Shown here: positions 43,456-43,965 of the stretch, piece after piece
How the letters are laid out: the number at the start of each line of letters is the position of its first letter
How positions within the stretch are numbered: position 1 is the stretch's first letter
Source: Eledone cirrhosa
Lineage: Eukaryota
Direction of reading: 5' to 3'
Length of the DNA: 47,755 nt
Assembly (NCBI GenBank): GCA_964016885.1
Contig: CAXHJY010000586.1
Span: 1 to 47,755, forward strand
Position numbers and translations under genes: made by a program
The notes under the pieces: model-generated
Databases searched by the model: none
What the model was told of the DNA's origin: nothing
Seen by the model: only the letters and a program-made list of their open reading frames with translations

Positions 43456-43500
43456 AATATTGGACTAGTTTCGATGTTGTTACATCTCATCAGCAATATT
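43456..43500 (-). ncRNA. Minimal type I hammerhead ribozyme, copy 1 of 8
   Basis: AAUAUUG-CUGAUGA-GAUGU-AACA-ACAUC-GAAA-C-UA-G-UC^CAAUAUU. All core nucleotides are present; predicted cleavage between 43463 and 43462. Confidence 0.93.
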
Positions 43501-43920
43501 TACCTATCTTCCGGCTTCTCTAGAGAATCGTGAAAGCACATATCGTTATATGCTTTTTCTATGAAAATTAGTAGTGGGCAGACCAATTTGCATAGAGCGT
43601 GAGTACGTACCGGTTCAACGGAGACGATAAAAACAAATAACGAAACGAAATTAAATTTCGTTTCGTTTGTAACTCACTTTTGTATGACTGACGCTTAAAC
43701 AATTAAGTTAAAAATGTACATCCACATATGTATACTGAAATACTAGTATGCATATGAATACACACACGTGTACATATGTAGATGTACCGAGTTTTCACTG
43801 GTCACTTTACTGTGAGTGTCCAGCTATTCTGTATGTAGACACACAGACAAACCGGTTCTTAGAGTCATACTGGTTTTTGAGGAAACACCTTTCCTCTATT
43901 CTCCAGAAAGCCAGACAAGG

Positions 43921-43965
43921 AATATTGGACTAGTTTCGATGTTGTTACATCTCATCAGCAATATT
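43921..43965 (-). ncRNA. Hammerhead ribozyme, copy 2
   Basis: Identical to 43456-43500. Confidence 0.93.

Follow-up and report, generated by a model that had tools for sequence, protein, structure and literature searches.

Non-LTR retrozymes are described as tandem repeats with type I hammerhead ribozymes that are expressed as highly self-paired circular RNAs, best ligated by RtcB, with Penelope-like elements (PLEs) put forward as their helpers (PMC7229834). According to a 2020 review, the repeats of animal retrozymes contain no motif pointing to a helper (PMC7761336). A 2026 preprint argues for a PLE origin from co-occurrence and from pLTR similarity in vertebrates, and leaves the mechanism unresolved (bioRxiv 2026.07.22.740005). 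How animal retrozymes enter genomes is the question that we address here.

PLE insertions carry a signature of their own, an inverted 5'-truncated copy with a tail at one end (PMC8557442). Their bias for (TA)n targets has been linked to a CX2-5CxxC linker, reported to be shared by the Neptune and Nematis groups (PMC8557442). For the anole PLE, the tail is described as the stretch between two internal start sites, both target strands being nicked and extended (PMC11167929).

A hammerhead-bearing tandem array in Eledone cirrhosa

The window that we analysed is a stretch of 47,755 nucleotides from Eledone cirrhosa (GenBank assembly GCA_964016885.1, contig CAXHJY010000586.1). On the minus strand at 43162..47139 it contains 8.6 tandem copies, 99% alike, of a non-coding 465-base unit; we read this array as one arm of a Penelope-type insertion. 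The RNA 3' end of the array lies at 43162 (unit base 301), next to (TA)n-rich target sequence at 43145..43161, and the array is 5'-truncated at 47139 (unit base 43). The unit has a GC content of about 37%, and its longest ATG frame has 19 codons on the hammerhead strand and 61 on the other. Searching the genome with the unit gave at least 278 matches on many contigs, from 26 of 498 candidates scored; the copies number in the hundreds, with nearly identical arrays scattered across many chromosomes. In each of X4 and X5, two runs assigned to other organisms, there is a single low-depth contig, exactly one unit plus 30 bases long and 97-99% alike to window 43300-44100; such unit-length contigs are expected from a circle and from a tandem repeat alike, and so do not tell between them.

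A type I hammerhead motif spans the unit junction (43440..43511, minus strand) and occurs in eight copies at 465-base spacing. It comprises the core CUGAUGA (43493-43487), a stem II of 4-5 bp with the loop UAACAA, and GAAA, and the cut is predicted after GUC, between 43463 and 43462. Stem I with its extension has its 3' strand, which carries a UA bulge, at 43494..43528 (minus strand); this strand pairs with the 5' end of the monomer at 43898-43927. Stem III consists of 2 bp around UA in the palindrome ACUAGU, which is identical in all 12 rows of our alignment A2. No hammerhead core was found on the plus strand of the array. At gathering scores, Rfam gave no match in the window; its HH9 model, whose gathering score is 52, aligns to 43440-43511 with a lower score of 38.9 bits (E 3.9e-8). 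The layout of the stem I bulge and loop 2 is the same as in the HH9 model, and a loop 2 of the form UAANAA and a UA-containing stem I bulge recur across families, so placed that the bulge could plausibly dock with loop 2.

Amphibian retrozymes with such a helix III are reported to cleave efficiently only as dimers (PMC7229834). The invertebrate unit studied here has the weak palindromic helix III that PMC7229834 describes for amphibians, and resembles axolotl HHR_Amex1 and newt satellite 2 (PMC7229834, PMC7761336) in a helix III of one or two pairs capped by a palindrome, in the expected cleavage as a dimer and in the kept stem I bulge and loop 2. When the two ACUAGU palindromes of a dimer are forced to pair, the folding energy lies only 2.2 kcal/mol above the unconstrained MFE, a structure in which the double hammerhead is absent. 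Among the Xenopus retrozymes tested in vitro, one of nine is reported to have cleaved and the other eight not (bioRxiv 2026.07.22.740005). The ACUAGU stem III also occurs in solitary hammerhead motifs with unrelated flanks (L116, L118, L120, L122, L123, L125, L126, L127), which may represent further ribozyme-bearing families.

Judged from its sequence, the element belongs to the animal non-LTR retrozymes, a known class whose members have already been described as highly self-paired: it has a type I hammerhead in every tandem unit, a GC content under 50%, no coding capacity, a stable self-paired predicted circle and dispersed arrays. It shares with the retrozymes of coral, mussel and axolotl (Cervera and de la Pena, PMC7229834) the tandem non-coding repeats, the hammerhead per unit and the low GC content, as well as a predicted self-paired circle with the ribozyme unblocked and the co-existence of PLEs. 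The unit is longer, 465 nt against about 170-400 nt, and lies above the range of 150-450 given in PMC7229834 and inside that of 51-972 given in the later preprint (bioRxiv 2026.07.22.740005).

Each unit also contains, on the minus strand at 43585-43592, the stretch ATGCAAAT, which we take to be an octamer-like motif. It lies within CTCAC...TATGCAAATT and is nearly invariant across families that are 64% identical, and the hairpin that holds it is invariant in our alignment. It is possibly an internal promoter or a protein site. The octamer was not found within 400 bases upstream of the nine host U2 genes examined. For newt satellite 2, an internal promoter of snRNA type has been described (PMC2220036).

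Predicted fold and its conservation

The first-pass annotation had described the monomer, here taken from cleavage site to cleavage site (43463..43927, minus strand), as almost wholly base-paired through ten named helices. All ten helix pairs are present in the unit where they had been placed, and nine of them form with a mean pairing probability of 0.87-0.99 when the minus strand is modelled as a circular ensemble; the CTGGTCACTT/GAGTGTCCAG hairpin reaches only 0.25 in this copy, which has an A.A mismatch. The suggested check, folding the reverse complement of 43463-43927 in circular mode, bore the structural claim out: the MFE is -153.1 kcal/mol, against -97.0 +/- 5.8 in 100 dinucleotide shuffles, none of which is as low (z -9.7). 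The plus-strand monomer reaches -128.0 kcal/mol (z -6.4), and eight other 465-base stretches of the window, on both strands, give z values from +0.6 to -4.1 (12 shuffles each). The extent of pairing had been overstated, since 308 of the 465 bases (66%) are paired in the minus-strand MFE, against 60.6 +/- 2.6% in the shuffles (maximum 68%). With 252 positions at a pairing probability above 0.9, what is unusual in the modelled fold is the length and quality of its stems, not the paired share.

The predicted fold is branched. A domain at 43682..43870 (minus strand), closed by the long-range GTATGACT/AGTCATAC helix, holds three hairpins, including a long one at 43716-43787. In the MFE the extended stem I does join both ends of the linear monomer, as had been claimed, and such an end-joining stem would fit circularisation. 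In published animal retrozymes, ligation is reported to be mainly by RtcB and not by the ribozyme (PMC7229834).

Because the units of the window are too alike to judge selection, we sought relatives in the genome. Family B (467-base units) is 93-95% identical to the unit and family E 91%; families C and D are at 63-64% over the unit's length. The folds of families E, C and D keep the same branch order, with z values of -11.0 (E), -9.0 (C) and -5.3 (D); in family D the plus strand folds better than the minus strand (z -6.0 vs -5.3).

A sequence-only alignment of 12 real copies (291 columns) was used for covariation. RNAalifold keeps 59 pairs, 23 of them with both-side changes. When the helices of the window are imposed on the alignment, 23 of 76 pairs change on both sides, a number that none of 500 shuffles reaches (11.6 +/- 2.4); controls with slid partners give 2-5. 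Compensatory changes are thus found among diverged copies, and sister families of 64-98% identity keep the fold. Most both-side changes fall in stem I, stem II, the GAGGAAA hairpin and the CTGGACAC hairpin, and stem I and its extension contribute 3 of 10 and 4 of 17 pairs. No helix covaries better across families than the CTGGTCACTT/GAGTGTCCAG hairpin, in which six of eight pairs change on both sides. All eight pairs of the long-range GTATGACT helix, which lies outside the alignment, are kept in families C and D, again with both-side changes. The AAAGCAUAUA hairpin has no both-side change in the alignment, and the measure of further pair types is not above shuffles (352/500). Broken pairs are fewer than under random placement of the same substitutions in five of seven close relatives (for example 3 vs 11.6 and 6 vs 16.0) and not fewer in the two closest.

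The both-side changes come mostly from one deep split, between A-like copies and families C and D, and therefore represent few independent events. Watson-Crick pairs that changed on the hammerhead strand became G.U in seven cases and A.C in six, so the substitutions do not pick a strand, and the assignment of the selected strand rests on the ribozyme. With stems kept by both-side changes and no ATG frame above 19 codons on the hammerhead strand, selection on RNA structure and not on coding, as the first-pass annotation had argued, is well supported by these comparisons. The fold is conserved, yet it is an expected property of the retrozyme class; the new part of our analysis is the anatomy of the insertions, of Penelope type, which the first-pass annotation had overlooked, as it had the palindromic stem III of 2 bp.

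Insertion ends and a candidate helper

Copies of the retrozyme lie in (TA)n as two divergent arms with two kinds of end. The 'long' end, at unit base 301 (43627, minus strand), reads TAT|CGT and is the putative first start of reverse transcription; it is the end used by the array at 43162. The 'short' end, at unit bases 224-232 (43696..43704, minus strand), would be the second start site. Between the two lies a 'tail' of about 74 bases (43628..43700, minus strand), which holds a 13-bp AACGAAACGAAAT hairpin (43639-43667). Both a long and a short end are present at 24 of 36 loci, and two like ends at none. Among the 19 loci of family A (20 stretches plus the window), 18 have an arm with its RNA 3' end at base 300-301, and 14 also have an opposite arm ending at 224-232 (at L040 a stub read by eye); the others comprise one locus with 301 and 244, three with 301 only and one with 227 only. 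Seventeen further loci, a count that leaves out the old array L146/L147, which showed no ends, divide into ten with long plus short ends, four with the long end only (one in a stretch that stops before its far end) and three with the short end only. Copies of families C and D end at the two homologous places, with eight long and seven short ends in 13 of 19 stretches. In another sample (run X1), loose ends to (TA)n occur at 43627 (long) and at 43696 and 43701 (short).

The long site falls in an unpaired linker of the predicted fold, and the short site partly in and partly next to the loop of a small hairpin that families A, C and D retain. The flanks are (TA)n on both sides, which would mask a target-site duplication such as non-LTR retrozymes show, longer than 4 bp where present, and no LTR-like layout was seen in the loci. 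A fold-back model of the second arm was rejected, since in L033, L037 and L050 the arm with the short end exceeds the other in length. At L048/L143 (G000:C4 near 161747400), a short-end retrozyme arm is joined on its 5' side to DNA of a LINE-like reverse transcriptase and not to an inverted arm. Family C units (L088, L091, L094) have a variable (TA)n tract inside the long hairpin, which thus contains the helper's own target, and other elements insert there (L082, L084, L090). The window itself has a 2.2-kb (TA)n tract at 38482-40693, the type of site targeted by retrozyme and PLE alike.

The inverted 5'-truncated second arm, the tail at one end and the (TA)n target make up the insertion signature of PLEs, and a PLE adjoins the array. 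The piece at 47140..47755 (plus strand), cut by the end of the contig, is a 5'-truncated part of a young element with an RT thumb, a CxxxxCxxC linker and the first part of a GIY-YIG domain. By its RT, linker and GIY-YIG it appears to be of Neptune type, the linker also occurring in Nematis. It is 99.5% identical to an open 1302-codon frame at another locus (L067), with YVDD at 927, CxxxxCxxC at 1176 and YIG at 1215; the family has its own hammerhead, different from that of the retrozyme. The GIY-YIG match of this frame to 1mk0 is weak (E 0.18), and a Pfam search with the helper frame gave no family. The best named protein match of the neighbouring PLE is from Octopus vulgaris (67%). The family is young: the 40 candidates scored, of 1836, are all near 100%.

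The loci of this PLE family repeat the geometry of the retrozyme. Ten of 19 have two arms, and in all ten there is one long and one short end, a 60-base tail and (TA)n flanks; the long end reads TAT|CGT, as in retrozymes. Because the retrozyme has the same two fixed ends as the neighbouring PLE, the enzyme of the latter likely copies the retrozyme into the genome, probably from circular RNA. A second young Neptune-type family (L164-L183) has frames of about 1217 codons, the same short end, a variable long end and a hammerhead with the core CUGACGA; it is 65% identical in protein to the first and could be the helper instead. Both families have their start sites within the ORF. Between the unit and the pLTR of either family no similarity was detected (local score 50 vs 44.8 +/- 7.9 in shuffles), and a blastn search with the unit against both families gave no match apart from nested copies.

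The retrozyme is thus comparable to endonuclease-positive Neptune-type PLEs (PMC8557442; PMC11167929) in its inverted 5'-truncated arm, one-end tail, two internal starts and (TA)n target, and unlike them it encodes nothing, forms arms of many tandem units and shares no clear pLTR sequence. Its tail of about 74 bases compares with about 60 in the helper and 30-40 reported for published PLEs (PMC8557442). The non-autonomous Chlamys elements, for example MRC1, are likewise non-coding, PLE-dependent and inserted as multiple head-to-tail copies; unlike the retrozyme here, they are reported to share 3' sequence with autonomous families and mostly to be without a canonical hammerhead (PMC8557442). 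Fixed two-arm insertion ends do not figure in the description of retrozymes in the available part of PMC7229834, and the word 'tail' is absent from the main text of the recent preprint (bioRxiv 2026.07.22.740005). A literature search over the main texts of mostly open-access papers brought up no PLE-type two-end anatomy of retrozymes and no octopus retrozyme. The young copies identify the target, pin both start sites to the base and supply a candidate helper, and their arrays look as if copied from a single unit; they also bear on the unexplained tail and inverted arm of PLEs.

In the window, the PLE piece is fused to the array head-to-head at 47139/47140, blunt and without microhomology. This retrozyme-PLE junction was found once in the assembly. 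No further head-to-head fusion occurs at the other loci examined, where L082 and L180 appear to be cases of nesting within a shared (TA)n. None of the contigs listed for runs X1, X2, X3 and X6 bridges 47139/47140; these samples carry other variants and are therefore uninformative on the window's own locus. The fusion may have arisen when DNA was deleted between two elements lying side by side in a single (TA)n tract, or by mis-assembly.

Template of the arrays and proposed route of insertion

Overall, we think it likely that the element is an animal non-LTR retrozyme that self-cleaves, is circularised and is copied into (TA)n by the reverse transcriptase of a Neptune-type PLE. The variants within the arrays bear on the template. 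One private variant is present in 11 of 11 units over both arms of L043 and in five of five units of L041, and a shared change marks all units of eight other loci. The two-arm locus L148/L149, with over 20 units, has one base change in one unit. Variants that run through all units of both arms are what rolling-circle reverse transcription of a one-unit circle would give. In L155 and L157, variants are found in only some units and are common to both arms. Some young arrays show variant patterns of period 2 and period 4 (L144 2629-4495; L145 1458-3322; L150 2030-7670). Reading the period-2 arrays as copies of dimer circles was set aside as not diagnostic, the alternation in L144 being confined to one arm. 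A long one-direction array of family E (L146, L147; G000:C1:95644000-95660000) has many differing units and repeated blocks, and may be a retrozyme turning into satellite DNA. The period-2 and period-4 patterns, in L144 in one arm, and this old array indicate that DNA-level duplication or multimer templates also act.

In the route that we propose, read-through transcripts of an array would be cleaved as double hammerheads, two ACUAGU palindromes pairing into stem III, and the extended stem I would keep the 5'-OH end next to the cyclic-phosphate end for a host ligase of RtcB type. The resulting circle has a single hammerhead with a stem III of only 2 bp, and would therefore resist re-cutting. 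The Penelope protein would nick both (TA)n strands and prime cDNAs at base 301 and about base 227, both sites being left single-stranded by the fold; each cDNA would circle the RNA many times, and the two 5'-truncated arms would be joined head to head. Selection on the fold would accordingly act through cutting, ligation and stability, and through the way in which it presents the two start sites. We tentatively extend this to a more general scheme, which we regard as possible and hold with some reserve. The Penelope-type reverse transcriptase may carry out twin-primed rolling-circle reverse transcription on a ribozyme-made circle, with a fold that mimics the two start sites of the helper without shared sequence and a weak, dimer-only hammerhead that keeps the circle closed during copying; the two primed strands could engage different RNAs, leaving a retrozyme-helper fusion such as that in the window. 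Because the young insertions name the target, the start sites and a candidate enzyme, the rolling-circle PLE route is testable with the existing in vitro Penelope assay.

The closest competitor, which we consider unlikely, keeps the same retrozyme and Penelope helper and takes as template a long uncut linear array transcript or a multimer, the hammerhead being slow or dispensable. It draws on the anole, in which Penelope insertion is reported to be unaffected by hammerhead mutants, with unprocessed RNA as the main substrate (PMC11167929). The weakness of stem III, the existence of the period-2 and period-4 arrays and the partial variants of L155 and L157, which would need either a heterogeneous multi-unit template or arm-to-arm conversion, also speak for it. 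However, variants in every unit of the young L043 and L041 require passage through a single unit, arms of 10-20 units could form only if that many hammerheads stayed uncut, and the hammerhead core and the end-joining stem I are conserved with covariation, all of which speak against it.

We regard as very improbable that the arrays are satellite DNA amplified by unequal crossing over, with hairpins that are unselected by-products of a palindromic, TA-rich sequence. The folding of the plus strand and the satellite-like state of L146/L147 would agree with this, and local amplification from a PLE terminus has been proposed (bioRxiv 2026.07.22.740005). Dispersed, nearly identical arrays that share the same two end points in (TA)n, and stems kept by both-side changes, argue against it.

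That the unit is no more than the pLTR of an as yet unseen autonomous Penelope element, and the arrays its truncated ends, strikes us as scarcely credible. The geometry is that of Penelope insertions, vertebrate retrozymes are said to resemble pLTRs (bioRxiv 2026.07.22.740005), and our genome searches cover the best-scoring candidates only. Yet there are up to about 20 unit-to-unit joins free of coding DNA, and the loci examined show no same-sense Penelope frame directly upstream of a retrozyme arm, except by (TA)n nesting. Moreover, both PLE families found have a different hammerhead and start sites within the ORF, and the longest frame on the RNA strand of the unit has 19 codons.

Viroids of the Avsunviroidae have hammerheads in both polarities and a branched stable fold, and are not known to have a DNA form in the genome of the host. 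The likeness to a branched viroid that the first-pass annotation had seen holds for shape only, the unit being alike in size class, in its branched stable fold and in having a hammerhead; it differs in the presence of the ribozyme in one polarity, the genomic DNA copies and a ribozyme that is not sequestered by a complementary strand. Viroid identity is ruled out by the one-polarity hammerhead and the hundreds of copies in the genome. To an infectious viroid-like RNA replicated from RNA to RNA and occasionally captured by the genome we give hardly any credence, despite the fold of viroid-like size, the several diverged families with compensated stems and the single-unit contigs of two other runs, given a hammerhead on one strand only and genomic copies whose retrotransposon signature explains the lineage without RNA replication.

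The rest of the window contains further coding remnants. Two adjacent frames at 30927-32421 (minus strand), one matching glycosyl transferase family 11 (E 9e-39) and the other with 54-base tandem repeats, may be a fucosyltransferase-like gene split by a frame change. Judged from their translations, fragments at 23191-27135 resemble a Helitron Rep/helicase gene that contains a coding repeat of 69 bases; Pfam gave no match for the one piece searched. Decayed RT and GIY-YIG-like fragments at 360-2261, 2632-3105, 5950-6555 and 19574-20947 apparently belong to other Penelope-like families. Pieces of non-LTR reverse transcriptases lie at 8581-11666 (RVT_1) and 28393-30858.
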